From positions 37,250-101,249 of the forward strand of contig JAVJSW010000001.1 of NCBI GenBank assembly GCA_040219255.1: a stretch of DNA of 64,000 nt. Reading direction: 5' to 3'. Under the pieces are notes generated by a model, which saw only the letters and a program-made list of their open reading frames with translations, was not told the DNA's origin and did no database searches. The stretch comes from Sumerlaeia bacterium. GTDB taxonomy: Bacteria; Sumerlaeota; Sumerlaeia; SLMS01; JAHLLQ01. Position numbers and translations under genes: made by a program. Below are positions 21,821 to 48,627 of this stretch, one piece after another (within the stretch, counting starts at the first letter, position 1; each line of letters opens with the position of its first letter).

Positions 21821-23992
21821 GTGCCAGTTGACGAACGCGACCGGGAGACCGTTACTACAGTCCTGAATGGCGTTCGGAGGCCTCCCGCAATTTTCCCTCG
21901 TTCTCTGTCTCTTCTTCACTTACGGAAATTCTGCCTCCTGACTGCGACCGCTCTCCTGCCGGCTGCGGCGGCGTGGCCGGGCGAGGGTCTCACGGCCCAG
22001 GCGCAATGGACCGGCGCGACCAGCGGCCTGCAGCTCGGCATGGCCTTGGCCGGCGTCGGCGATTTCAACGGCGACGGCCTGATGGATTTCGCCGCCGGGG
22101 CGCCCGGCTTCGACGCCGATACGGGGGCTGCGGGTCTGATCCTCGGCGGCACCAGTTCTCTTCCGAACCCCATCGGGCCGGATACGCTGACCGGCGCCAA
22201 CGGCTTTTGGGCCCGCGCCAGCGACCCCCGCGAGCGGGCCGGAACCGACGTGGCCGCCGCCGGTGACGTCAACGGCGACGGCTTCGCCGATTTGCTCATC
22301 GGATCGGCCTACGCCCGGGGCTTCCGGGGCGCCGCTTACCTGATCTTCGGCAGCGCCGCCGCCTTTCCCCGCGCCTTCGAACTCGACCTCATCGGCGCAC
22401 GCCAGGGCACCGCCGAAATCACCCTCGGCACAGTCATGCCGGGCGATACGCTGAGCGACCGCATGGGCACCGCCGTGGCGGGAATCGGCGACTTCAACGG
22501 CGATGGCTACGGCGATTTCGCCATCACGGCGGCACTGGCACAGGTGGGGGACGAGATTTTCGCCGGCCGGACCTTCGTGCTCTTCGGCCGCGAGAACTTC
22601 ACCGGTCAACTCTCGCCCTTCGACTTGCTCCCCGCCCGTGGCGGCGACGGGTCCGAAGGCTTCGTCCTCAATGGCGCCTTGTCTTACGATCAAGCCGGGC
22701 AAGCCATCGCCGGTCTTGGCGATATCAACGGCGATGGCTTCGCTGATTTCGCCGTGGGGGCCCCCTATACCGACGCCACCGATCTGGGCACGGAAGGCAA
22801 GGTGTTCGTCCTATTCGGCCGGCCAAGCGTCCTGATGCCCGAGTCCACCCTCGGCGCCCTCTCCCCCGCCGAAGGCTTTGTCGTCGCCAGTTCCATCCCC
22901 GAAGACCGCATCGGGTTCGCCGTCGCCGCTGCTGGCGACGTCAACGGCGATGGGCTCGAAGATTTCCTGATCGGCGCCCCGCGCGCCGACGGACGAGACG
23001 GCGCCCTGGTGGCCGCCGGAAAGGTCTACATCGTCTTTGGCCGCAGCGTCTTTCCCTCGCGCATCGATGCCGCAGCGAGCCTGCTCAGCATGGAGGGCGC
23101 CAGTGATCAGGACTTCTTTGCCCAGGCCGTGACCGGAGTGGGCGATTGGACCGGCGATGGTTTCGCGGATATTCTGATCGGCGCGCCCCGCGTGGACTCG
23201 CCAGATCGCCTGCTGCTGGAATTGGGGCAGACCGCCCTCATCCCTGGCGCCGCTTCGACCGGTGCTATTGGGCCAATCGCGTCCACCCTGACCGGTACCG
23301 CCGAGCGCAGTCTCCTGGGACAGAGCCTCGCCCTGATCGGCGATCACGATGGCGACGGCCGCTTCGCTTTCCTGGCCGGAGCCCCCACCTCCCCAGGCCA
23401 GAACGCTTTGCCCCAGGCGGGCGCCGTTATCGTCGTTAGCGAACCCGCAGGCCTCGCGGCCGACGGCCAACGCGTGCTCTCGCCCGCAAACGCCGCGTTC
23501 CTGCCGGTGGGTTTTGCTGGCGGGGCCAGCGCCATCGCACCCCGCACCGCTCTCCACGCCCGCGCCATCGGAGGAACGACGCCGGTAACCCTCAACGCCC
23601 GCCGCGAAGCCCAAGCCCCACGGAACCTGCCCGATGCGACGCCGGTGCGGTGGCGCCTGGAAGCAAGCGATCCGGCGCGGCGTCTGGAAATCCGCGTGGC
23701 GTTGACCGCCGCCGAAGTCGCCGGACTCCTGGAGTCGCGGCTGGCCCTCTTCTCGGCACCCGCCGAGGACGGGCCCTGGACGCCAGTCGCCGGAGCGGTT
23801 CGCGTCGGCGGCCGCCTGCAATGGCAGGGAACCGTGACCGCGACCCCCGTCTGGCTCGCTATCGCAGAGCGCCAAAGCGCCGTCGTGCGACAGGAAATCG
23901 TCCGCTTTCTCCTCGGCATTCAGGCCTACCGCGACGCCCTCGACGTAAACCGAGATGGCGTCGTGGACAGCGCCGACATGACCGGTTTGTAG
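21821..23992 (+). CDS. Secreted FG-GAP repeat (integrin-alpha-like beta-propeller) protein
   Basis: Signal peptide (LLTATALLPAAAAWP); at least 7 canonical FG-GAP repeats (GDFNGDGLMDFAAGAP, GDVNGDGFADLLIGSA, GDINGDGFADFAVGAP ...); C-terminal dockerin-like DVNRDGVVDSADM. True start probably a GTG/TTG near 21900. Confidence 0.75.
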   Translation: MPVDERDRETVTTVLNGVRRPPAIFPRSLSLLHLRKFCLLTATALLPAAAAWPGEGLTAQAQWTGATSGLQLGMALAGVGDFNGDGLMDFAAGAPGFDADTGAAGLILGGTSSLPNPIGPDTLTGANGFWARASDPRERAGTDVAAAGDVNGDGFADLLIGSAYARGFRGAAYLIFGSAAAFPRAFELDLIGARQGTAEITLGTVMPGDTLSDRMGTAVAGIGDFNGDGYGDFAITAALAQVGDEIFAGRTFVLFGRENFTGQLSPFDLLPARGGDGSEGFVLNGALSYDQAGQAIAGLGDINGDGFADFAVGAPYTDATDLGTEGKVFVLFGRPSVLMPESTLGALSPAEGFVVASSIPEDRIGFAVAAAGDVNGDGLEDFLIGAPRADGRDGALVAAGKVYIVFGRSVFPSRIDAAASLLSMEGASDQDFFAQAVTGVGDWTGDGFADILIGAPRVDSPDRLLLELGQTALIPGAASTGAIGPIASTLTGTAERSLLGQSLALIGDHDGDGRFAFLAGAPTSPGQNALPQAGAVIVVSEPAGLAADGQRVLSPANAAFLPVGFAGGASAIAPRTALHARAIGGTTPVTLNARREAQAPRNLPDATPVRWRLEASDPARRLEIRVALTAAEVAGLLESRLALFSAPAEDGPWTPVAGAVRVGGRLQWQGTVTATPVWLAIAERQSAVVRQEIVRFLLGIQAYRDALDVNRDGVVDSADMTGL

Positions 23993-24757: not shown

Positions 24758-27700
24758 TCAGCCCCCGCCCCCACCGACTTGCGCCAGCAAGCCGGTCGCC
24801 TTGCGGTGCGCGCCGTCCAACGCCGCGATGATCGCCGACAGCTCATTGCGCGTCAGGCTGGCGCCCTCGCGGCTTTCCACCAGCAGAAGCGTATCCTCGC
24901 GCAGGGCGAAGCTGACCGGTAGAATCTCGGAGTTGAAATCGAGCAGCACCCGGTACAAATCCGGCCCGGCGGCGCCGTTCAGCGCCCCCACCTCCGCCTC
25001 CAGATAGAACCGCTCGCCCTCGATCCGTAGCCGCACCGGCAGGCCGCCGTCGCGTTCCAGCAGGTACTCGGTGCGAGAGACTTCGCGGACGATAAACCCA
25101 CTGCCTTCAAGGAACCGGCGCAGCGAACCGGCCTGGTTGAATTCGCCTTCCTTGGGCGACCAGACGAATTTGTTCTCGCTCGGCGCTGGCGGCGTGGGAG
25201 CGGACGCCGGGGCGCGCTCGGGAATCACGGCCATGGCCAGGCTGGTCAGGATCTCGTGCAATTGGGCCAGGCTCTCCGGCGGGAACGTCGCCCGCAGATC
25301 GCCGGAAATCGGCGCGGGCGCGGCGGCCTGCGGCGCTTCAGAGCGCGTGGAGGCCGCCTCGGCGAGCGCCGCCTTCAAATCCGCCAGTCCCGTCTGCAAT
25401 CCCGCCAGGGCCTCCGGCGCGAATTCCGCCCGCACCGGCCGGTCCGATTCGGACTGCGCCTGGCGCATCGCGTCCAGGGCCAACTTCAATTCCGCCAGCG
25501 CTTCGCGCACCGGACCGAGGCTTTCGCCCTCGAGCGTCGCCCGCACCTCCTGCGGCCCCGTCGGGCGGCTTTGCTCGACCCGGTCCGCCAACTGCGTCAG
25601 GCCCCCCGCGATGCCCGCGTTCAGGCCGCCAACGCCCTCCGACAAATCGTTCAGCACGCCCATGATCTGGGTCATGCTGTCGGCTTGGCCGCCGCCGATG
25701 CCGCGGAACTTCTGGTTCCGGCGGAAGGTGTCGCAGATTTCCGCCCAGCGCTCGCGATCGCCCGGCTGTTCAAAGCCAAACGTCAGCTTGAAATTCAGCA
25801 GGTTCGCCTCGGCGCCGGTTGTGAGCGTCTGCGCCTCCTGATCGTAGTGCGAGAAAATCAGCGTCTTCAGCTCCGCATCGTTCATCACCGGCAGCACCTT
25901 CTCCGCCAGCTTGTTCATGTTGCGATAGGAGCCCTGGAGCTTGAACGGCGGCTGGGTGCGGAATTCGTCGGCTTGGGCGGCGCTCTCGATGTACATTTCG
26001 TTGATGCGCAGAATGACGTCGCGCACCGCCATCAGCTTCTTCAGCACGTCCACGTATTCGCTGATTTCGGTCGCGCTGTGGTTCGCTTCGAAATCCACGC
26101 CTTCGCGCGAACCGGTCTCGGCGATGCGCAGAATACCGTGCAGATCCTTGTGGCTCTTGGCCGACAACCGCGCCAGCGAGGCGTTCGAGGTCATGGCGTT
26201 TTCGATGTAGGACAGTTCGAACGCCGCCCGCGTGTCGCCAATGATGTCGCCCAGATTATACGTGTCGGCGCGGTTGGCCAGCATGTCGGGAATCTGGAAC
26301 TTTTCGCCGCTCTCGGTGTAGGGATTGCCGGCCATGATGACGCAGACTTTCCGCCCGCGCAGGTCATAGGTTTTCGTGCGGCCCTTGTACACGCCCTCGA
26401 TCTTGCGCTGGGCGTCGCAGAGGCTGATGAATTTCTGCAAGAATTCCGGGTTACAGTGCTGAATATCGTCGAGATAGATCATCACGTTGTCGCCCATTTC
26501 GAGCGACAGGTTCAGCTTCTCCAACTCCTGACGCGCTGTGGCGTTGGGGGCCTCCACCGGGTCCAGGCTGGTGACGTGGTGGCCGATGGCTGGACCATTG
26601 ATTTTCATGAAGATAATGCCGAGCCGGTTCGCGATGTACTCCATCAGCGTCGTCTTACCATAGCCCGGCGGCGAAATCAGCAGCAGCATGCCCATCCGAT
26701 CGGTGCGAGTATTCGCACCCACCGTCCCCATTTGTTTCGCCAGGTTGTCGCCGATCAGCGGCAGATAAACCTGATCCAGCAGCTTGTTGCGCACGAAGCT
26801 GGACAAGATGCGGGGCTTGAATTCTTCGAGCCGCAGTTGCTCGCGGAAGCGCTCGGCGCTGCGTTTCTTCGCCTCCTGGAACGTGCGGAACATCGGCCCC
26901 ACGGTGCGGTCGTAGTGGGCAAGGCGGCTCATGAATTCCGGATAGCTGAGCCCATAGCGGCCCTCCGCGATGCGGCTGTGCGAACCCAGCATGCCCTCTA
27001 ATTCCCGCGTGATCGAAGCCGACAGCACGCGCCGCTTCTCGAACGACCCGGTGAAGCAAAGCACCGCCGCTTCATCCAGGTACGGCCGCAGCGTTTCGGC
27101 CTCCTTCGCCTTCTCCAGATACCCCGCCAGCCATGCCCGCACCAGCGCGAAAGTCCCCACCGGATCGGCCTCCGCACCGGCCAACGTTTCCTCGAAGGCT
27201 TTGGCGCCATTGGCCTTTTTCAGGTGTGCGGTGAAGCCCTCGAAGAGCTTGGCGGCCTCCGGCGCGATCACGAAATCTTCGCCTGCCGTCAGCTCGAAAT
27301 ACAGATACTCAGCGCCTTCGCGGGCGGCCTCGGCGGGAAAAAGGGCCGTCGTCTCGGCGAACGCCACGAGCTGTTCCTCGAGCGGCGCCAGGAACCGCCC
27401 GCGGTCCAGCCGGTGCGGCAGCACCCGCAGAATCGCCCGCACACCCCGGAGTTGCTGGGCGAGGCGCCCCTTCAGTTCCCCATCGCCAAAGCGCCGGAAC
27501 CACATCTGCGCGCACGCCCGCGAAGCCGTCGGGTAGCGCAGCAGGCCAACCGCCTGATTCATCTGCGCCAGCGCCCGCACGATCTTCGCCGCGTCACCGT
27601 CGTGGACGCCCTTGACGTAGCCCTCGGCGTAGCGCGGGCTCGCGAACTTCTGCACCGCGTCCAGCAGCGCCGCGTCCTCCATCACCGCCAATTCGGCCAC

Positions 27701-30508
27701 CGGCGGTTGCGCGCCCGATTCGCTGGCCTTCAGGAACTGATAAGCCAGATATTCGGCGCGATAGACATTATTGTTTTCGGACACGATTTCCTGCGCCCAA
27801 ACCGCCCGGGTCTCGTCCAATTCCGGATCGGACGCCATTTCATAGAAGTTCGTTCCGGTGATGTGGTAATAGATCTTGCCATCGCGAATGACCGTCGAAA
27901 GATCCAAAGGTTGCGTGTTGACGCTAAATTTCTGTTTTCCGAACTGGATGACATCGCCACCGTCGGCGTACAATTCCAGTTTGTCCTTCAGTTGACGAAG
28001 GGCGTCTTCCTTGATGGTTTTCAACCGGCTTTGAATTTCGTCGGATTTGACCGAGTCGCCCAGGTCCCGCAGTTTCTCGATCGTGTCGCGCACTTTATCA
28101 ATCATCAAATCGGTGGCGAAGTAACTGTTGATTTCGTCCACCGACTTCATGCCGCGAGCGCGATTTTCGACGCCCTTCAGGATGCGGTCCGCCGCCCCCT
28201 GGAGCGTGACCGCCCGCTTCTGGCGGGCTTCCATCAGCGACGTCTTCTTGCTCTCGAACGCCTGATAAATCTCTTCCCGCTTGGTGGAAAGCTCCGTCAC
28301 GAATTCATCGTAATCGGCAAACTTGCCTTCCAGCTCCTCGACCTGGACGAGTAACTTCGTCAGGTACTCGTCGCACTTCTCCGGTGTGTCGCAAAGGTCC
28401 ATGAAGTTCACGACGCTCTGGCTGACGAGCTTGATTTGCGATCCGAACTCCGCGACCGCTTCCGCGCTGCCCAATTCCTTTTTCTTGTTTGTCAAGGCGG
28501 CGCGGACCTGATTGACCTTCTGGAAAATCGCGGAAATCGCATCGATGATTTGGGTCGTCTTCGTCGAATCGTCGATTTTCAAATTCCCGACGATTTCGAT
28601 CAACAATTCGAGCTGCCCGCTGATTTCGTGAATCGCCTCTTCATGCTCGCGAGCTTCCGTGACTTTCGTCAATTTCGGAATCGCCGCCTTCTCCTCCGCG
28701 ACTTTCTCTTCGTAGATATCGAGGGCGTTTGGCTGGAGCAAGAACTCCACCGTTTTCTCTGAGACCCCGTCGCTCTGCTCGGCGACCTGCTTCTCCAGCG
28801 CTTCCACGTGCGGCAAATCCACATAGCGGAGGTCCTTGAGCGAAATCACCTCGCCGCGCAGCAAACGCAATTCATTCAGCCCCGCCACATAGCCATCCAC
28901 CGCGGGCCATTGCCGGCCGCGCAGGCTCCCAAGAATCTCTTCCGCTTTCTTTGTCGTTTCGCGGACTTTCGTTTCCGTCTGCTTGCGAAGCGCCGTGACT
29001 TTTTCGAACTCGTCGATGGCCGTGCCGGCGCTCCTGCGGATTTGCTCCAGCACTTCCTTTAAATTGAAGAGCTCGCCCTCGCCCACCCAAAAATACGAGT
29101 CCGTGATATCCGTGGTGTTCTTCACCAAGTCCAGATACAGACTCTCGTAAGGCGTTTCGCGGCGGCACAGCTTGATGACTTCCCAGCATTCCGCCATCGC
29201 TCGCACAACTTCTTTGTTTCCAATTTTGTAGAGGCGCGAATCGCCCTTTTGAGGAAGCTCGAAATTCGGCCCCACATACGGGGTCTGCCACACCTGCACG
29301 GGATGGTGCTTTTGCGGCTCGATCTGATCGCCGAAGTACACCATTTCTCCGTTTTCGAAAATCGAATAACCCTGGCCGACAATCGGTGTCGCGACCCGCT
29401 GCTCGATCATGTTGTACGACAACAGAATATACACGCCGCTCGCCCTGTTGTGAAACACGAACAGGTGATCTTCGCCGTTGGCCGATGGCACCCGCCGCTC
29501 GAACAGCATTTCCTTCAGACCATGCTCGAACTGCTTGTGCTCGCCATTGACCAGGTAATAACCACTGCTAAAGATAATTCCGTGATCGTCCGGCAGAAGA
29601 ACGCAAGAATGCTGGATCGCATCCACGCGCCGCGCTTCCTTGATCTTGTCGTTATAGATGATATACCGATGATCTTTCTCCTGGTAAGGCTTGATCTTCA
29701 GCAATATCAGCGGCCCCACCACGGCGTAGGAAATCTCGGCGTCGTCCAGCACCTGGTCGGCGTTTTCCACCGGTTCCCGATAAATACCCTCACCCGACTC
29801 CGTATTGTCTTCCACCTTGATGGTCAAATCCCCGCCAACGGTTTCCACGAAAACTCGGTCTTCGATGGAAATGTGCGGGTGTTTCCCTTCGCGGTGCAGG
29901 TCGCGGTGCGTACGCTTCCAGGTGAACTCGTGCTGCGGCGGGTACTTGAACTCGTGATCGCTGCGGTTGTCCAGGTACGTCAACCCGTCCCCCTGAATCG
30001 CCCACTTGAAGGTCTTGATGTCCGTCGGCCGCTTGCCCACCTGGAAAACCATGAACAGGTGCGGCCCGATAATGGCGAATCGCGAGAACGTCGTTTCCTT
30101 GTAATACTTGTAGAGGTTGTTGAAATCCTCCTCGAACCGCTTGTCATCGATCAGGCTCAAATCCGCCGTGTGAAACTGGCGCTCCCGGTATTCGTAAACG
30201 GCGAAAACGTCCTTGAGCTCCGTCGTGCTCTTCAGACCGAAATGGACATTGTAGCCAAAGATAAACCGGGTTCCCACCGGCACCATATCGCGGGCGATGC
30301 AGTTATGCTCCGTCGTGATCCGCGCCCGGTCCAGGACCTGCAAATCGATCGAGCCAAAGGTGTCCTTCCGCACCGCGTTCAGCTTGTTGACGCGGTCCTG
30401 CAAATCCTTCGCCTGCGCCGCGAGACGATTGCGGATGATCTCGTAGGTGCCGCCTTCGAGCTGTGCTTGATCCTGTTGCGCCTGCGATTCTTTTTCAACG
30501 TCCGCCAT
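24758..30508 (-). CDS. Giant (1916 aa) uncharacterised protein: aromatic-rich N-domain + about 700-aa coiled coil + single AAA_5 (dynein/MoxR/McrB-class) ATPase module + C-terminal YbjN-like domain
   Basis: Walker A LLLISPPGYGKTTLMEYIANRLG, Walker B VMIYLDDIQHCNPEFLQKF, sensor-1-like KVCVIMAGNPYT; heptad-rich region about 500-1200; C-terminus FVWSPKEGEFNQAGSLRRFLEGSGFIV...RFYLEAEV...LLDFNSEI matches YbjN/T3SS-chaperone-like fold; RBS GGGGAAAGAGAGA before ATG; GC lower than neighbouring genes. Confidence 0.8.
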   Translation of the reverse strand: MADVEKESQAQQDQAQLEGGTYEIIRNRLAAQAKDLQDRVNKLNAVRKDTFGSIDLQVLDRARITTEHNCIARDMVPVGTRFIFGYNVHFGLKSTTELKDVFAVYEYRERQFHTADLSLIDDKRFEEDFNNLYKYYKETTFSRFAIIGPHLFMVFQVGKRPTDIKTFKWAIQGDGLTYLDNRSDHEFKYPPQHEFTWKRTHRDLHREGKHPHISIEDRVFVETVGGDLTIKVEDNTESGEGIYREPVENADQVLDDAEISYAVVGPLILLKIKPYQEKDHRYIIYNDKIKEARRVDAIQHSCVLLPDDHGIIFSSGYYLVNGEHKQFEHGLKEMLFERRVPSANGEDHLFVFHNRASGVYILLSYNMIEQRVATPIVGQGYSIFENGEMVYFGDQIEPQKHHPVQVWQTPYVGPNFELPQKGDSRLYKIGNKEVVRAMAECWEVIKLCRRETPYESLYLDLVKNTTDITDSYFWVGEGELFNLKEVLEQIRRSAGTAIDEFEKVTALRKQTETKVRETTKKAEEILGSLRGRQWPAVDGYVAGLNELRLLRGEVISLKDLRYVDLPHVEALEKQVAEQSDGVSEKTVEFLLQPNALDIYEEKVAEEKAAIPKLTKVTEAREHEEAIHEISGQLELLIEIVGNLKIDDSTKTTQIIDAISAIFQKVNQVRAALTNKKKELGSAEAVAEFGSQIKLVSQSVVNFMDLCDTPEKCDEYLTKLLVQVEELEGKFADYDEFVTELSTKREEIYQAFESKKTSLMEARQKRAVTLQGAADRILKGVENRARGMKSVDEINSYFATDLMIDKVRDTIEKLRDLGDSVKSDEIQSRLKTIKEDALRQLKDKLELYADGGDVIQFGKQKFSVNTQPLDLSTVIRDGKIYYHITGTNFYEMASDPELDETRAVWAQEIVSENNNVYRAEYLAYQFLKASESGAQPPVAELAVMEDAALLDAVQKFASPRYAEGYVKGVHDGDAAKIVRALAQMNQAVGLLRYPTASRACAQMWFRRFGDGELKGRLAQQLRGVRAILRVLPHRLDRGRFLAPLEEQLVAFAETTALFPAEAAREGAEYLYFELTAGEDFVIAPEAAKLFEGFTAHLKKANGAKAFEETLAGAEADPVGTFALVRAWLAGYLEKAKEAETLRPYLDEAAVLCFTGSFEKRRVLSASITRELEGMLGSHSRIAEGRYGLSYPEFMSRLAHYDRTVGPMFRTFQEAKKRSAERFREQLRLEEFKPRILSSFVRNKLLDQVYLPLIGDNLAKQMGTVGANTRTDRMGMLLLISPPGYGKTTLMEYIANRLGIIFMKINGPAIGHHVTSLDPVEAPNATARQELEKLNLSLEMGDNVMIYLDDIQHCNPEFLQKFISLCDAQRKIEGVYKGRTKTYDLRGRKVCVIMAGNPYTESGEKFQIPDMLANRADTYNLGDIIGDTRAAFELSYIENAMTSNASLARLSAKSHKDLHGILRIAETGSREGVDFEANHSATEISEYVDVLKKLMAVRDVILRINEMYIESAAQADEFRTQPPFKLQGSYRNMNKLAEKVLPVMNDAELKTLIFSHYDQEAQTLTTGAEANLLNFKLTFGFEQPGDRERWAEICDTFRRNQKFRGIGGGQADSMTQIMGVLNDLSEGVGGLNAGIAGGLTQLADRVEQSRPTGPQEVRATLEGESLGPVREALAELKLALDAMRQAQSESDRPVRAEFAPEALAGLQTGLADLKAALAEAASTRSEAPQAAAPAPISGDLRATFPPESLAQLHEILTSLAMAVIPERAPASAPTPPAPSENKFVWSPKEGEFNQAGSLRRFLEGSGFIVREVSRTEYLLERDGGLPVRLRIEGERFYLEAEVGALNGAAGPDLYRVLLDFNSEILPVSFALREDTLLLVESREGASLTRNELSAIIAALDGAHRKATGLLAQVGGGGG

Positions 30509-30943: not shown

Positions 30944-33058
30944 TTACCCCTTCTTCACCAGCCCCGGCTCGCCCAGCAACTGGGCCGCCGGTTTGTCGCT
31001 CAGGCCCGCCTGCTTCGCGCCGTCCAGCAGCCCTTGCAGCATCGCCTTCGTTTCCTTCTCCTTCGTCATGCCGATCAGGCGCAGCAGCAGCGCCGACGTC
31101 GTCAGGTTCTTCAGATCCGCCGTCGTCACGCCGAAGGTATCGACCAGCTCCTTGACCTTCACGCGCAGGGCTTCGCCCGCGTCGCTGGTGCCGTTGCCGT
31201 TGGGGATGAAAGCATCCCGCAGGCCCGACGCCACGTCGCTGTTCTGCACGAACCGGTCGACCGACTTGCCGTAGGAAATCGAGTTCACGATACGATCGAA
31301 GAACATCGAGTCGCCGCCGACGATGTCGATCTTGGCGCTCTTCAGGCCTTCGCGGATCACGCTGGCCTGGGCTTCGGCGATGTCGCGCTGGATCGTGATC
31401 TGGGCCAACTCGATTTCCTTGTCCTTGGCCAGGCGCAGCTTGAACTCCTCGTGCTCGCGGCCCACCGCGTCCAGCTTCTTCATCGCTTCGGCCTTTTGCG
31501 TGATGCCTTCCGCTTCCGCGTTCATCTTCTGGCGCATGACTTCCGCTTCCGCTTCGCCCTGCTTCTGGGTCGCTTCGGCTTTGGCGGCCAAGCCCATCGC
31601 TTCCGCTTCCGCCTTCTTCTGGATGACTTCCGCCTGGGCCGCGCCTTCCTTGGCCAGGGCCGACGCGCGGGCCTCCATCACGCGGACTTCCGACATGCCG
31701 TGCACGGCCTCTTCCTCGGCTTTCGCGGCGGCCAGGGTCTTCATCGCTTCGGCGCGTTGATCGGCGGCCAGCTTGTCCGCCTCCGCTTCCACCTGCACCT
31801 GCTTGGCGCGGTGGTCGGCGGCCTGGCGTTCGGCCTCGGCGGCTCTCACCCGCTTGATCATTTCCTCCTCGGCTTTGCGCTGCGCCTCCACCAGGGCCAC
31901 ATGCTTCTCGCGCTCGGCGCCGGCGTGGGCCTGCGTGTCCTTGATGCGCTCTTGCTCCTCGACCACCTGGCGCTCCACGACAACCCGTTCGCGGATGACG
32001 TCCTGGATGTTCTTGCGCTGCTCTTCGACGCTCTTCTCTTTTTCGATCTGCGCCAAGGTCACGATGCGTTCGCGCTCGTTTTGCTCCAACTGGCGAGCCT
32101 GCTCCACCCGTTCGCCTTCCACAGCGTCGGTGCGTTCCTTCGCCCGCCGGGCCACGATGACCTGGCGTTCGCGGTTTTGCTCCGCCACTTCCAGCTCTTC
32201 CGCCGTCGCGATGCGCGCCTGCTCGGACTTCTGCCATTCCTGAGCCTTCACGATGGCCGCTTCCGCTTCCTCGCGGCTTGTCAGGGCGGCGATCTCCTTC
32301 TTCTGCCGCTGCTCCGCTTCCGTGCGCTGCCGGTCCAGCTCCAGGATCGCCTCGCGCGCTTCCACGTCCTGCTGCTTGATCGTCTTCTCTTTATCGCGCT
32401 CGATCTTGTTCGCCAGCATCTGCTGCTTCGATGTCAGATCGGTGATCTTCTTGATACCCTCGGCGTCCAGGATGTTGTCCGGGTTCAACGTCTCCTTGGG
32501 CGTCTGCTCCAGGTAATCGATCGCCGCGTCGTCCAGGATGTAACCGTTCAGGTCCGTGCCGATGATCTGCAGGATCTCGTTCTTGAACTTCTCGCGGCTC
32601 GAGTACAACTCGGTGAAGTCAAAGCCCTTACCGACCGTCTTCAGCGCCTCCGAGAACTTCGCGTCGAAGAACTCCACCAGCGCCGCCGGGTCGCTCGCCC
32701 GCTCGCAGCCAATGCTTTGCGCCACTTTCAAAACGTCCTGCTCCGTCTTGTTCACGCGGACAAAGAAGGCCACCTTGATATCGGCGCGCATGTTGTCCTT
32801 ACAAACCAGGCCATCCTTGCCCGTGCGCCAGATTTCGATGCGCTTGACCGAGACGTCGATTTCTTCCAGGCGGTTGAACACTGGGTAATAGAAGCTCGCC
32901 GAGAAGACGACTTTCGATCCGCTGCGGCTGGTGATGATCAGGGCTTTGCCTTGTTTCGCTTTGACCAGGAAGAATCGGGCCGCGGCCACATAGCCGACAA
33001 TCAGTATCAGGCCGACAAGAAAGGCGATACCGAGAATGAGATAAACGAGGTCCATCAT
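30944..33058 (-). CDS. Flotillin-like SPFH/band-7 protein (YqiK/FloT type) with long Ala/Glu/Gln-rich coiled-coil region
   Basis: 704 aa; N-terminal TM, SPFH domain (VFNRLEEIDVSVKRIEI...DNMRADIKVAFFVRV), extensive EA-repeat coiled coil, flotillin C-terminus. Confidence 0.9.
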   Translation of the reverse strand: MMDLVYLILGIAFLVGLILIVGYVAAARFFLVKAKQGKALIITSRSGSKVVFSASFYYPVFNRLEEIDVSVKRIEIWRTGKDGLVCKDNMRADIKVAFFVRVNKTEQDVLKVAQSIGCERASDPAALVEFFDAKFSEALKTVGKGFDFTELYSSREKFKNEILQIIGTDLNGYILDDAAIDYLEQTPKETLNPDNILDAEGIKKITDLTSKQQMLANKIERDKEKTIKQQDVEAREAILELDRQRTEAEQRQKKEIAALTSREEAEAAIVKAQEWQKSEQARIATAEELEVAEQNRERQVIVARRAKERTDAVEGERVEQARQLEQNERERIVTLAQIEKEKSVEEQRKNIQDVIRERVVVERQVVEEQERIKDTQAHAGAEREKHVALVEAQRKAEEEMIKRVRAAEAERQAADHRAKQVQVEAEADKLAADQRAEAMKTLAAAKAEEEAVHGMSEVRVMEARASALAKEGAAQAEVIQKKAEAEAMGLAAKAEATQKQGEAEAEVMRQKMNAEAEGITQKAEAMKKLDAVGREHEEFKLRLAKDKEIELAQITIQRDIAEAQASVIREGLKSAKIDIVGGDSMFFDRIVNSISYGKSVDRFVQNSDVASGLRDAFIPNGNGTSDAGEALRVKVKELVDTFGVTTADLKNLTTSALLLRLIGMTKEKETKAMLQGLLDGAKQAGLSDKPAAQLLGEPGLVKKG

Positions 33059-33064
33059 GGGACG

Positions 33065-33754
33065 TTAGGGCTCCTTGGCGATAAGTTCGGAAGAGGGTAA
33101 GGGTTCGATTTGGTAAATGCCCCGGCTTTCGTCTTCGTTGACGATCACAGCCTGTTGCCGGGCGGCGAGGGTGATGCCTTCGCGGGTTCGCACGTTCAGA
33201 CGCAGCGGCGCGCCCGTGATTTCGATTTCCGCCTGGCCGATACGGATCGCGTCCACGGCGGTCAGCGTCGTGCAGATACGCCCCGTCAGATCGCGAATCG
33301 TTATCTCGTTCGACTCCCGGGCGGCTTTCGCCAACGGCGCCGTGATCGCCTTCGTGGCGAAAATCGCCAGGATGTAGGCCACGAACAAAATCACCAGGCC
33401 AATACCCGGATCGTGGTTCGGATTCAGGACGATCGTCCCGATCATCGTGATGGTCCACATCACCAGGATCAAAATCCCGATCACGATCATCAACGGAACC
33501 TGATGGGCGTTGATGAAGGAAAGGAAACCCGACAGAATCCCGCCGCCACCGCTCCCCCCCTCCGCATCCAGGTCCGCATCCCCGTCCACGCCCGCATCCA
33601 GGTCCAGGTCGGCGTCGATTTCCGCCTCCATATCCAGCGAATCGCCACCCACGAATCCCAGAATCACGAACAGCCAGTAGGCCACGACCAAGAGCAACGG
33701 CACCGTCACGATCAGGTTGATCGGCGCAAAGACAACATTCAGCAACTCAGCCAT
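33065..33754 (-). CDS. YqiJ/NfeD-like membrane protein (flotillin-associated, C-terminal OB-fold)
   Basis: About 230 aa from Met MAELLNVV; 3-4 TM helices, acidic loop (DADLDLDAGVDGDADLD), C-terminal beta-barrel (ITIRDLTGRICTT...IEITGAPLRLNV); 6-nt gap to flotillin start, as in yqiJK/nfeD-floA operons. Confidence 0.7.
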   Translation of the reverse strand: MAELLNVVFAPINLIVTVPLLLVVAYWLFVILGFVGGDSLDMEAEIDADLDLDAGVDGDADLDAEGGSGGGGILSGFLSFINAHQVPLMIVIGILILVMWTITMIGTIVLNPNHDPGIGLVILFVAYILAIFATKAITAPLAKAARESNEITIRDLTGRICTTLTAVDAIRIGQAEIEITGAPLRLNVRTREGITLAARQQAVIVNEDESRGIYQIEPLPSSELIAKEP

Positions 33755-34066
33755 CCATTTCTCGCTCCTTTCGGCACTTCGCGTTCGCATCCCTTACTTC
33801 ACCACCGAGAGCCCTATTCACCGCCCCGGCGGAAAAATCGGCGGCGCCCATTGATTGCGCCCCTCGATCCGATTTTCGCCCCTGTTTTTTCGCCTCTATT
33901 CGTCTCGCCCTTTCCGCCAGTGGTCAAGCTCAGCCGACACCCGCCGAAGCCTTTTCTTTCGCCCTTTCCCCCTTGACAGATCGGCCCGCCTTGCCTTCCC
34001 CTTTTCCCTAGCTCCTGGCTCCGCTCCAACTCGCGGCCCGCCAGGCATAAGGGAAAGACTCCGCAG

Positions 34067-34171
34067 ATGTTTTTCGCGACGCTCCAGCTTTTGGTTTTCG
34101 CCACTGCCCACAAGGCAGAGCGGTGGATCCTGGGCCGTCGCCTCGCCGTGGTCGTAGTACGAACGCTCTGA
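34067..34171 (+). CDS. Candidate ilv leader peptide (34 aa, MFFATLQLLVFATAHKAERWILGRRLAVVVVRTL)
   Basis: Short ORF with RBS AAGGGAAAG; four consecutive Val codons (GTG GTC GTA GTA) just before the stop; stop codon embedded in 5' arm of a strong hairpin; followed by terminator and ilvB. Confidence 0.5.
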   Translation: MFFATLQLLVFATAHKAERWILGRRLAVVVVRTL

Positions 34172-34263
34172 GACGGGGCCGCCCGCCGGCCCGCCCCTCG
34201 GGCCATGCGTCTCAGAGCCGAAAACACCAGCCGCTGACGTCCGTCGGCGGCCTTTTTGTTGTC
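34165..34263 (+). promoter_or_regulatory. Transcription attenuator upstream of ilvB: 11-bp-stem hairpin (gctctgagacg...cgtctcagagc) followed by intrinsic terminator (gccgctgac-gtcc-gtcggcggc + CTTTTTGTTGTC)
   Basis: Perfect 11-bp inverted repeat 34165-34175/34208-34218; second hairpin 34230-34251 followed by U-tract 34252-34263; located about 75 nt upstream of ilvB start. Confidence 0.55.
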
Positions 34264-34335
34264 ACTGCGTCTCCAAAAGACACCACGGCTTTGCGAAACC
34301 CAACCCACACCGCCAAATCAAGAGAACCTCTCGCT

Positions 34336-36258
34336 ATGATTCACGAAGAAATGTCCCCCGCCACCGAAGACGCCGTGGCTGAAGAATACGCCACCAACGG
34401 CCAGGACGTCGCGCTCCGCGCCCCCCACGCCCTCCGCGGACAGCAAATGACCGGCGCCGACACCATCATCCAGGTCCTCGCCGACGAAGGCGTCGATGTC
34501 ATCTTCGGCTACAGCGGCGGCGCCATCCTGCCCACCTACGACGCCATTTTCCGCTACAACAAGAACCATCAGGAAGACCTCGAAAACCAAATCCGCCTCG
34601 TCGTCCCCGCCAACGAGCAGGGCGCCGGGTTCATGGCCGCCGGCTATGCCCGCGCCACCGGCAAAGTCGGCGTCTTCCTCGTCACCAGCGGCCCCGGCGC
34701 CACCAACTGCGTCACCCCCATCCGCGACTGCATGGCCGACAGCGTCCCCACCATCCTGATCTGCGGCCAGGTCCCCCGCCCCGCCATCGGCACCGACGCC
34801 TTCCAGGAAGCCCCCATCTTCAACATCATGAGCGCCTGCGCCAAGCACACCTTCCTGGTGACCAAACCCGAGGAACTGGAAGCCACCTTCCGCACCGCCT
34901 TTGAAATCGCCCGCAGCGGCCGCCCCGGCCCCGTCGTCATCGACGTCCCCAAGGACGTCCAGAACGCCCTGATGGAATACCAGGGCGACGGCGTGCTGGA
35001 ACTGCGCGGCTTCCAGAAGCGCATGGAAAACCTGCGCGCCGCCAAAGTCTCCAAGAAAAACCAGGCGTCCTTCTTCCAGATGCTCGGCGAATCCAAACGC
35101 CCCCTCATCTACGCCGGCGGCGGCGTCATCAACAGCGCCGGAGCCGCCGAAGAACTGCGCGCCTTCGCCAAGCGCTTCCAAATCCCAGTGGTGACCACCC
35201 TGATGGGCATCGGCGCCTACGACACCACCGACTCCCTCAGCCTCCACATGCTCGGCATGCACGGCGCCGCCTACGCCAACTACGCCGTCGAAGACTGCGA
35301 CATGCTCATCGCCGTCGGCAGCCGCTTCGACGACCGCGTCGCCGGCAAGGTTCTCGAGTTCGCCCCCCTGGCCCGCCACATCGCCCACCTCGACATCGAC
35401 GCCGCCGAAATCGGCAAGGTCAAGAACATCCACTGGAGCCATGTCGGCGACGCCGGTGCCGGCCTCAAGATGCTCCGCGAATACGGCGAGCAGATCGACT
35501 TCAAGCGCGACTTCTCCGCCTGGGTCCAGCACGCCGCCGAACTCCGCGCGAATCACGCCTTCAACTTCGACCGCGAATCCGCCATGCTCCAGCCCTACGA
35601 AGTCCTCGAAGCCCTCAACCGCATCACCAAAGGCGAAGCCATCGTCTCCACCGGCGTCGGCCAGCACCAGATGTGGGCCGCCCAGTACATCGACTACAAG
35701 CACCCCCGCTCCTGGCTCACCAGCGGATCCATGGGCACCATGGGCTTCGGCCTCCCCGCCGCCATCGGCGCCAAAATCGCACGCCCCGACAAAATCGTCA
35801 TCAACGTCGACGGCGACGGATCCATCCGTATGAACATCGGCGAACTTGAAACCGCCACCACCTACGGCGCCAACATCAAGGTCCTTCTCCTCAACAACGA
35901 GGGCGACGGCATGGTGCGCCAGTGGCAAAAACTCTTCTTCGACGAACGCTTCTCCGGCACCGACAAGACCATGCACACCAAGGACTTCGTCAAAGCCGCC
36001 GAAGCCGACGGCTACCGCTTCGCCAAACGCCTCGAACTCTACGACCGCGAAAACCTCGAGCAAGTCCTCCAGGAATTCGTCGCCTTCGACGAAGGCCCCG
36101 CCTTCCTCGAAGTCCGCATCGACCCCGACGCCTGCGTCTTTCCCATGGTCGGCCCCGGCAAAGGCTACAAAGACATGATCGTCGGCCCCCACATCACCCC
36201 CCGCGACGCCGCCGCCGCCCAAGAAGCCAAGGGCGCCGAAGCCGCCGACCTCTTCTAA
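34336..36258 (+). CDS. ilvB: Acetolactate synthase (acetohydroxyacid synthase) large catalytic subunit, biosynthetic type
   Basis: TPP enzyme blocks (GYSGGAILP, GPGATN, ThDP motif GDGSIRMNIGELETA...NNEGDGMVRQWQ); start assigned to ATG 34336 (track ORF extends upstream to 34123 in the same frame). Confidence 0.9.
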   Translation: MIHEEMSPATEDAVAEEYATNGQDVALRAPHALRGQQMTGADTIIQVLADEGVDVIFGYSGGAILPTYDAIFRYNKNHQEDLENQIRLVVPANEQGAGFMAAGYARATGKVGVFLVTSGPGATNCVTPIRDCMADSVPTILICGQVPRPAIGTDAFQEAPIFNIMSACAKHTFLVTKPEELEATFRTAFEIARSGRPGPVVIDVPKDVQNALMEYQGDGVLELRGFQKRMENLRAAKVSKKNQASFFQMLGESKRPLIYAGGGVINSAGAAEELRAFAKRFQIPVVTTLMGIGAYDTTDSLSLHMLGMHGAAYANYAVEDCDMLIAVGSRFDDRVAGKVLEFAPLARHIAHLDIDAAEIGKVKNIHWSHVGDAGAGLKMLREYGEQIDFKRDFSAWVQHAAELRANHAFNFDRESAMLQPYEVLEALNRITKGEAIVSTGVGQHQMWAAQYIDYKHPRSWLTSGSMGTMGFGLPAAIGAKIARPDKIVINVDGDGSIRMNIGELETATTYGANIKVLLLNNEGDGMVRQWQKLFFDERFSGTDKTMHTKDFVKAAEADGYRFAKRLELYDRENLEQVLQEFVAFDEGPAFLEVRIDPDACVFPMVGPGKGYKDMIVGPHITPRDAAAAQEAKGAEAADLF

Positions 36259-36337
36259 ACCATCGTCCCCGTTCGCAATCCCGCCAACCGGCGGAACGCG
36301 AACCCGCAAGGCCCCATCCCCCGCCAAAACGCCACCG

Positions 36338-36382
36338 CCCCGGCAAAGCCTTCGCGCTTCGCCGGGGCGGTTATCGTTTTTT
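36338..36382 (+). terminator. Intrinsic terminator after ilvB
   Basis: ccccggc...gccgggg GC-rich hairpin followed by CGTTTTTT. Confidence 0.7.
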
Positions 36383-48424: not shown

Positions 48425-48627
48425 AGTTGCCCCATTCCCGAAAATTCTCTCTGCCGGAAACGAGTTCCCGGGCCAGAACGTGACCCTATTTCCTAGGTCC
48501 GCCGGGGGCAAGGAGCAAGAGAGACCGCCATCCCGGCTGAAAAAGGAAAAAGCCGGGAGAGCGATTCTTCGCTCTCCCGGCATCGATCCTGGGTCAGAGG
48601 CGCTTGTGAAGCGATGAAGGAGGGGTC

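Follow-up and report, generated by a model that had tools for sequence, protein, structure and literature searches.

The closest functional analogue of the element considered here, a leader upstream of the acetolactate synthase (AHAS) gene ilvB in 64,000 nucleotides of Sumerlaeota DNA (hereafter the window; Sumerlaeia bacterium, GenBank assembly GCA_040219255.1, contig JAVJSW010000001.1, positions 37,250 to 101,249), is the ivbL-ilvBN leader of Escherichia coli, which controls the same enzyme (AHAS I), contains runs of valine codons, ends its peptide with Pro-stop (MTTSMLNAKLLPTAPSAAVVVVRVVVVVGNAP) and carries an intrinsic terminator before ilvB. The two leaders share no sequence or Rfam relationship, and their hosts belong to different phyla. 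In ivbL, region 1 contains the Val codons and a terminating ribosome frees the terminator arm (Table 2), whereas the Sumerlaeota leader has its run ahead of the first hairpin and its stop codon inside that hairpin, and the predicted effect of ribosome position is inverted. The E. coli trp leader resembles the Sumerlaeota leader in its short open reading frame (ORF) that carries regulatory codons in tandem, in a first hairpin placed at the distance expected of a pause hairpin and in an intrinsic terminator. Its stop codon, however, lies just before region 2, such that a terminating ribosome blocks the antiterminator (Table 2), while in the Sumerlaeota leader the 2:3 pairing is weak and putative, and region 2 is located 35-40 nt past the stop codon. 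For the amino acid that it senses, the E. coli leu leader employs the rarest of the synonymous codons (CUA), as the Sumerlaeota leader does with GTA, although this amino acid is a different one and the alternative pairing is classical.

Leader peptides preceding ilvB have also been described in Actinobacteria, including in an earlier comparative study (PMC1262725). In Corynebacterium glutamicum, the IlvL peptide (MTIIRLVVVTARRLP) contains the control codons CUU and GUA, and three overlapping hairpins are present in the leader of ilvBNC (PMC11857589). The ilvB1 gene of Mycobacterium tuberculosis is preceded by an upstream ORF that encodes LVVI, with GUA and UGA codons (PMC13236596), and a Leu-rich attenuator peptide is known from Staphylococcus aureus (PMC5794164). 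A remark in the initial annotation of the window, that leader-peptide attenuation is not routinely annotated outside Proteobacteria, was therefore overstated. The actinobacterial IlvL and ilvB1 leaders and the Sumerlaeota leader are alike in being ilvB leaders from outside Proteobacteria that use GUA codons, designated control codons in the papers on both actinobacterial leaders, with a UGA stop codon also in M. tuberculosis, and the C. glutamicum peptide ending ...LVVVTARRLP resembles the Sumerlaeota endings ...LLVVVRLP and ...VLVVVRRP. In contrast, the actinobacterial peptides number just 15 aa and their transcripts are nearly leaderless; there, hairpins and ORF overlap and some bases (a GCC boundary) belong to both antiterminator and terminator, while the Sumerlaeota ORFs comprise 26-61 codons, follow a 5' untranslated region (UTR) with the ATG 35-94 nt past a -35 box, and are associated with a first hairpin and a terminator that stand 10-12 nt apart. 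None of these IlvL-type features was found in the Sumerlaeota leader, only the peptide ending being similar; this similarity is probably convergent, because GC-rich Arg and Pro codons build the hairpin stem.

The phylum Sumerlaeota (formerly BRC1) has no cultured member, the host organism is known only from metagenome-assembled genomes (MAGs), and no paper on gene regulation in the phylum was found. The ilvB leader of the window is composed of an ORF, a conserved run of rare Val/Leu codons, a covarying hairpin (H1), a conserved geometry and a predicted terminator (Table 1). Because a rare Val/Leu codon run and a terminator are conserved before the gene for the first enzyme of Val/Leu/Ile synthesis, ribosome-mediated attenuation offers the best explanation of this arrangement. 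With somewhat better than even confidence, the element is interpreted as an attenuator of ilvB transcription that is read by the ribosome and responds to the availability of charged tRNA-Val, probably also of tRNA-Leu, and in which H1 serves as pause hairpin and protector. It would thus be a Val(/Leu)-sensing attenuator of known principle, seen for the first time in Sumerlaeota and possibly with a variant geometry.

All of the parts that the initial annotation had named are present in the window. It had proposed a 34-codon leader ORF upstream of ilvB, with four consecutive Val codons followed by three more codons and a stop; this ORF exists (...LAVVVVRTL), its Val run and CGA codon being followed by ACG CTC and the stop codon TGA (34169-34171). 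The stop codon falls, as had been claimed, within the 5' arm of a perfect 11-bp stem, the basal stem of H1, in which GCTCTGAGACG (34165-34175) pairs with CGTCTCAGAGC (34208-34218). A second GC-rich hairpin with a U-tract, placed by the initial annotation about 75 nt before ilvB, was reported by a terminator scan; its stem comprises nine pairs, seven of them G-C, with a loop of 4 nt, and is followed by CTTTTTGTTG, and 73 nt separate the U-tract from the ilvB ATG at 34336. Its 5' arm includes CCGCTG (34231-34236), which is invariant in all eight loci compared below. H1 and the terminator share no bases. The claimed ribosome-binding site fared less well, being the weakest item of that description: the purine-rich AGGGAAAG is present, but its match to a Shine-Dalgarno sequence is weak and its spacing from the ATG is long. 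Likewise, the leader promoter is putative, as a sigma-70 scan gave no -10 match near the leader, and none is recognizable at the eight loci, although TTGAC is found 5' of the leader start in every one of them.

The 301-nt leader region folds better than all of its shuffled versions (z = -4.2). Perfect stems of at least 11 bp with a loop of 3-40 nt occur at only four loci in the 64 kb, where Markov-1 random sequences gave a mean of 1.7 hits, and only four VVVV runs are found in the six frames of the window. The neighboring gene 5' of the leader is divergent, so the terminator is not the end of another gene. A search of 33000-35000 on both strands with Rfam covariance models returned only noise (best E = 0.57, an unrelated snoRNA), and no match was found in this interval to leader or cis-regulatory families, including the Leu, Thr, His and Trp leaders, T-box and riboswitches.

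Comparison with related loci shows these parts to be kept together as a unit. Relatives with about 70% identity in AHAS were reached via a protein database and their upstream DNA was taken from the encoding contigs; in a neighbor-joining tree, the AHAS of the window falls into a Sumerlaeota clade with P0002, P0004, P0007, P0008, P0009, P0023 and P0069. Every clade member with readable upstream DNA has the unit of Val/Leu-run ORF, stop-bearing hairpin and terminator. The alignment of orthologous ilvB upstream regions that the initial annotation had suggested as a check thus showed the Val-run ORF to be kept in seven further independent loci of the same clade, and the resulting eight loci (the window, L163, L164, L169, L171, L174, L178 and L180) count as seven independent lineages at this level of identity. 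The leaders end in the pattern [VL]-V-[VL]-V-R-x-[PL]-stop (Table 2). Counting from the stop codon, positions -7 and -5 are V or L and positions -6 and -4 are V in all eight, position -3 is R in seven and position -1 is P in six. The frame from run to stop is kept in all eight loci without frameshifting indels, while the N-terminal part of the leader varies in both length and sequence. Because the upstream neighboring genes differ from locus to locus, the unit is taken to travel with ilvB.

The RNA elements are conserved along with the peptide. H1 measures 47-54 nt and the linker 10-12 nt at all eight loci, all have a U-tract 3' of the terminator hairpin, and the leader stop always lies within H1, in the 5' arm at seven loci and in the loop in L178. 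In the H1 basal stem, 95.5% of the alignment cells are paired and five of the 11 pairs show compensatory changes among the eight sequences; the covariation score was reached by none of 500 shuffles, and slid controls were only 35-53% paired. The interior of H1 lacks sequence conservation and contains no conserved loops. A covariance model built from the eight sequences (R1) scores them at 88-113 bits, only before these ilvB genes, and found no second copy in the window or in 91 other loci (638 kb). The unit is absent from five loci at about 70% identity, namely L161 and L165 (Sumerlaeaceae), L166 (BRC1), L172 and L179, and no Val/Ile-rich leader was seen in 44 loci of the AHAS clade at 60-68% identity, which belong to other phyla.

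Table 1. Features of the ilvB leader region, in window positions.
Feature	Position	Strand	Basis
-35-like box TTGACA of the leader transcription unit	33973..33978	+	read in the sequence; TTGAC common to 8/8 loci
Possible weak ribosome-binding site, purine-rich AGGGAAAG	34050..34057	+	9-12 nt from ATG
Leader ORF, 34 codons, MFFATLQLLVFATAHKAERWILGRRLAVVVVRTL-stop	34067..34171	+	ORF list and translation
Candidate regulatory codons Val x4, GTG GTC GTA GTA (34148-34159), then rare Arg codon CGA	34148..34162	+	codon counts and 8-locus alignment
Hairpin H1, 54 nt, about -36 kcal/mol	34165..34218	+	folding, alignment, covariation
Linker CGAAAACACCA between H1 and terminator, 11 nt	34219..34229	+	length kept in alignment
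Predicted terminator hairpin GCCGCTGAC-GTCC-GTCGGCGGC, -17.5 kcal/mol	34230..34251	+	terminator scan, consensus fold
U-tract TTTTTGTTGT	34253..34262	+	read in the sequence and terminator scan
ilvB, biosynthetic AHAS large subunit, the proposed regulated gene	34336..36258	+	100% identity to P0001 and domains

Codon choice within the run is consistent with a sensor of tRNA charging. GTA accounts for only three of 236 Val codons (1.3%) in genes of the window and for none of the 41-48 Val codons in ilvB of the GC-rich relatives, yet it occupies codon -4 in seven of the eight leaders and codon -6 in five. The codon at -3 is CGA in six of the eight, a codon that makes up seven of 234 Arg codons (3%) in window genes. 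Single Ile, Leu or Val codons further upstream were considered as the true sensors and rejected, as they have no fixed position and occur at the frequency expected by chance.

The consequences of ribosome position for RNA folding were simulated by placing a ribosome at every codon and masking all RNA as far as 12 nt 3' of the first base in the A site, in a thermodynamic calculation without kinetics. In full-length RNA, the terminator forms at every ribosome position (P > 0.95); this version is uninformative, because the E. coli trpL and ivbL leaders give the same result. In the informative version, the RNA was cut just before the 3' arm of the terminator emerges and pairing of the terminator 5' arm was read out, with six E. 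coli leaders serving as positive controls. The classical profile, in which a ribosome on the regulatory codons favors the antiterminator and a ribosome at the stop codon favors the terminator, was recovered for five of the six (Table 2). When the 5' arm of H1 was masked, the consensus fold yielded a single alternative helix, between UCRGRG in the H1 3' arm and CC.GCUGA in the terminator 5' arm, and the predicted pairing of the latter rose from 0.07-0.35 to 0.4-0.97; the terminator arm amounts to an imperfect copy of the H1 5' arm.

Table 2. Leader peptide endings (a stop codon follows each) and predicted pairing of the terminator 5' arm by ribosome position.
Leader	C-terminus	Ribosome on Val/Leu run or regulatory codons	Ribosome on last codons or stop
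Window	...LAVVVVRTL	0.18-0.40	0.66
L163	...TVLVLVRRP	0.23-0.50	0.75 at -2, then 0.34 at stop
L164	...GVLVVVRRP	0.30-0.51	0.72
L169	...TVLVVVRRP		
L171	...ALLVVVRLP	0.07-0.45	0.59
L174	...GVLLVLVLLP	0.22-0.50	0.74
L178 (low GC)	...SVVVVSVVVVVRLLWGSVVG		
L180	...AALVLVRQP	0.24-0.93	0.97
E. coli thrL		0.97	0.01
E. coli leuL		0.75	0.01
E. coli ilvL		0.75	0.04
E. coli trpL		0.62	0.01
E. coli ivbL		0.62	0.24
E. coli hisL (relay type)		0.74	0.74, not resolved

Other pairings were sought with less success. Complementarity of the terminator arm to the region before the run, to the H1 interior or to the H1 3' arm showed no consistent excess over the genomic background, a marginal signal for the H1 interior being driven by L180. 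Comparison with shuffled terminator 5' arms likewise gave no excess pairing. These negatives carry little weight, because established E. coli attenuators do not pass such a test either. A helix between the Val/Leu codons and the linker ("P0") seemed to covary by eye but did not rise above shuffles (p 0.08-0.93) and was discarded. Locus L178 (2488-2744) is the only one with a classical predicted terminator/antiterminator profile. Its 61-codon leader contains two Val runs (VVVV S VVVVV), and with TGG in place of TGA its ORF continues as far as the H1 loop. When the ribosome occupies the first run, the codons of the second (GUGGUAGUGGUGGUUCG) pair with the linker and terminator 5' arm (CGA..AACAACCACCGCUGAC), enclosing H1, and this arm is 0.82-0.87 paired; with the ribosome over the second run, this pairing falls to 0.21. 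For the GC-rich loci, pairing of the terminator arm with the 27 nt that precede H1 (0.36-0.70) is predicted only while the ribosome stays five or more codons 5' of the run, a part of the leader in which conserved sensor codons were not found.

A mechanism can be proposed in which translation of the leader ORF, a polymerase pause and a putative antiterminator (2:3) pairing together set the direction of regulation. Transcription would start about 60 nt upstream of the leader ORF, and RNA polymerase would synthesize H1 and probably pause 10-12 nt later, just before synthesis of the terminator; the length of the linker matches the distance between pause hairpins and pause sites, an analogy that suggests such a role. 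To reach the stop codon in the 5' arm, a translating ribosome must enter the base of H1, and its entry would free the paused polymerase, release being expected when the A site is at about codons -6 to -4, the invariant Val positions with GUA. If Val-tRNA is ample, the ribosome would proceed to the UGA and leave, H1 would re-zip, and the terminator and U-tract would form, stopping transcription before ilvB. If Val-tRNA is scarce, the ribosome would linger on the rare GUA codons four and six codons before the stop with its leading edge in the base of H1, and the freed 3' half of H1 could capture the invariant CCGCUG by pairing as the terminator 5' arm emerges; the terminator would then fail and ilvB would be transcribed.

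Several results weigh against this mechanism. The predicted ribosome profile is the inverse of that of the five E. coli controls, the terminator 5' arm being least sequestered when the ribosome is on the Val run, and among the Sumerlaeota leaders the classical pattern was seen only for the first Val run of L178. This inversion arises because the run precedes H1, whose 5' arm contains the stop codon and whose 3' arm follows 35-40 nt past it, and because H1 and terminator have no bases in common. A ribosome on the first Val/Leu codons leaves H1 untouched, one that has reached the last Val codon opens no more than about 5 of its 11 bp, and one at the stop codon opens it fully, so that antitermination should, in a simple model, peak where the ORF ends. 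This opening of H1 at the stop codon is the most serious problem of the mechanism: its logic could be saved by timing alone, and conserved slow features at the ORF end (CGA, and Pro-UGA in six of the eight loci) would prolong the open state of H1 even without starvation. The helix between H1 3' arm and terminator 5' arm is weak (consensus -1.8, per sequence -4 to -8.6 kcal/mol), the single informative change in the H1 3' arm, a G-to-A of the window and L178, is uncompensated in the terminator arm, and no robust conserved antiterminator was found, H1 and terminator being without overlap. Shine-Dalgarno matches are weak in the leaders of the relatives as well as in that of the window. The description of the locus as a textbook arrangement in the initial annotation was therefore not sustained, given the non-overlapping hairpins, a stop codon in region 1 rather than just before region 2 and the inverted profile, and the folding of 34140-34270 that it had recommended revealed no mutually exclusive terminator/antiterminator pairing.

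The geometry itself would be better accommodated if H1 were not a protector but an antiterminator without overlap, its intact form being the ON signal that suppresses the terminator by acting on the polymerase or by blocking entry of the terminator stem. H1 would stay intact, permitting readthrough, when a ribosome stalls on the Val/Leu run, while one terminating inside H1 would destroy the hairpin, erase the signal and permit termination, which is the physiologically expected logic without recourse to timing. The run ends 5-7 nt before H1, sparing H1 in most stalls, the stop codon is always inside H1, and the size of H1 and its distance to the terminator are conserved. However, H1 does not overlap the terminator, which according to the folding predictions forms each time H1 is closed, and the unconserved interior of H1 argues against a specific polymerase-binding RNA, of which put of phage HK022 is an example. 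No precedent is known in which an intrinsic terminator is suppressed by a plain hairpin located 10-12 nt upstream of it, and this reading is considered unlikely. A two-strand antiterminator that encloses H1, formed by pairing of the Val/Leu-codon RNA with the linker and terminator 5' arm and controlled by sensing codons further upstream, is likewise suggested by the two-run profile of L178, where it is clear, and by the pairing of the 27 nt before H1 in the GC-rich loci, which would represent degenerate versions. Yet the latter have no conserved upstream run to hold a ribosome, and a ribosome on the conserved run masks the required strand and favors termination, which is the wrong logic. With complementarity that does not exceed the genomic background, a Val-codon:linker helix that does not exceed shuffles, and the specific retention of GUA and CGA left unexplained, this arrangement seems rather improbable.

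It is also conceivable that the element does not sense starvation, but encodes an arrest peptide (Val/Leu run, R-x-P-UGA) that responds to a small molecule, or that it is an untranslated constitutive partial terminator or protein-binding leader. TnaC ends in ...HRP-UGA, which the R-x-Pro-UGA ending of six of the eight leaders recalls; in the RNA-only logic, stalling on the run favors termination and would suit repression by an abundant ligand; the weak Shine-Dalgarno sequences point the same way; and the nucleotides GTCGTACGAC are conserved beyond coding need, forming a palindrome in four loci. As a protein operator, this palindrome was rejected, since it is absent from the window, L174, L178 and L180. 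Positions -7 and -5 keep only the V/L class, with V and L swapped between lineages in the manner typical of regulatory codons, and the choice of rare codons points to tRNA sensing, while the frame from run to stop is kept in all eight loci, and neither an Rfam match nor conserved H1 loops were found; this family of explanations is accordingly given little credence. Finally, GC-rich DNA holds many open frames and GC hairpins, which might by chance have placed an ORF beside two unrelated hairpins. The rarity of VVVV runs and perfect 11-bp hairpins in the window, the retention of the unit at the seven other loci, the covariation of H1 and the divergent upstream gene make such a coincidence extremely unlikely.

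Recognition of the tRNA-sensing attenuator in Sumerlaeota would add a further phylum to Proteobacteria, Actinobacteria and Firmicutes as one in which ribosome-mediated AHAS attenuation either originated or was acquired, and the covariance model R1 allows annotators to mark the element. Its geometry is unusual: the stop codon is enclosed in a hairpin of 50 nt, this hairpin and the terminator are separate, and the predicted profile is inverse to that of the E. coli leaders. The element thereby offers a compact test case for whether timing, through pause release and dwelling on rare codons, can replace a strong antiterminator. If H1 were instead itself the antiterminator, intrinsic termination would be linked to the position of the ribosome in a novel manner.

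The regulated gene of the window encodes a product 100% identical to P0001, from a Sumerlaeia bacterium MAG, with TPP_enzyme_N, TPP_enzyme_M and TPP_enzyme_C domains. The public annotation of P0001 (603 aa) begins at the ATG at 34447 (Met38). Residues H31 and G35, which lie upstream of this annotated start, are invariant in seven orthologues, for which reason the true start is probably upstream, the ATG at 34336, preceded by AAGAGAA, being the likelier candidate. In the window, ilvB is monocistronic and followed by a strong terminator (stem 36334-36371 and T run), and no gene for the AHAS small subunit, ilvN, was found by tblastn anywhere in the 64 kb; in six relatives, ilvN directly follows ilvB. 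In L180, the attenuator is separated from ilvB by a 158-aa ORF without a Pfam hit (377-853), which apparently belongs to the attenuated transcription unit as well.

Among the relatives, a further frame that opens 2 nt past the leader stop codon (UGAGAUG) and runs through H1 and the terminator is open in L163 (2855-3004), where it ends in an ATGA overlap with ilvB; it is interrupted in L164 (2849-2893), and was set aside as probably due to chance for this reason. The leader ATG of L178 is only about 35 nt past TTGAC, so its 5' UTR must be very short. Directly 5' of the leader promoter region, tRNA-like genes were read by eye in L163 (about 2480-2555) and L171 (about 2590-2680, other strand). 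Apart from H1 and the terminator that follows ilvB, the perfect hairpins of at least 11 bp in the window are located at 22701-22740 and 48552-48581. Elsewhere in the window, positions 24758-30508 on the reverse strand encode a 1916-aa protein with DUF3686 ("ATPase involved in DNA repair"), DUF7902 and AAA domains.

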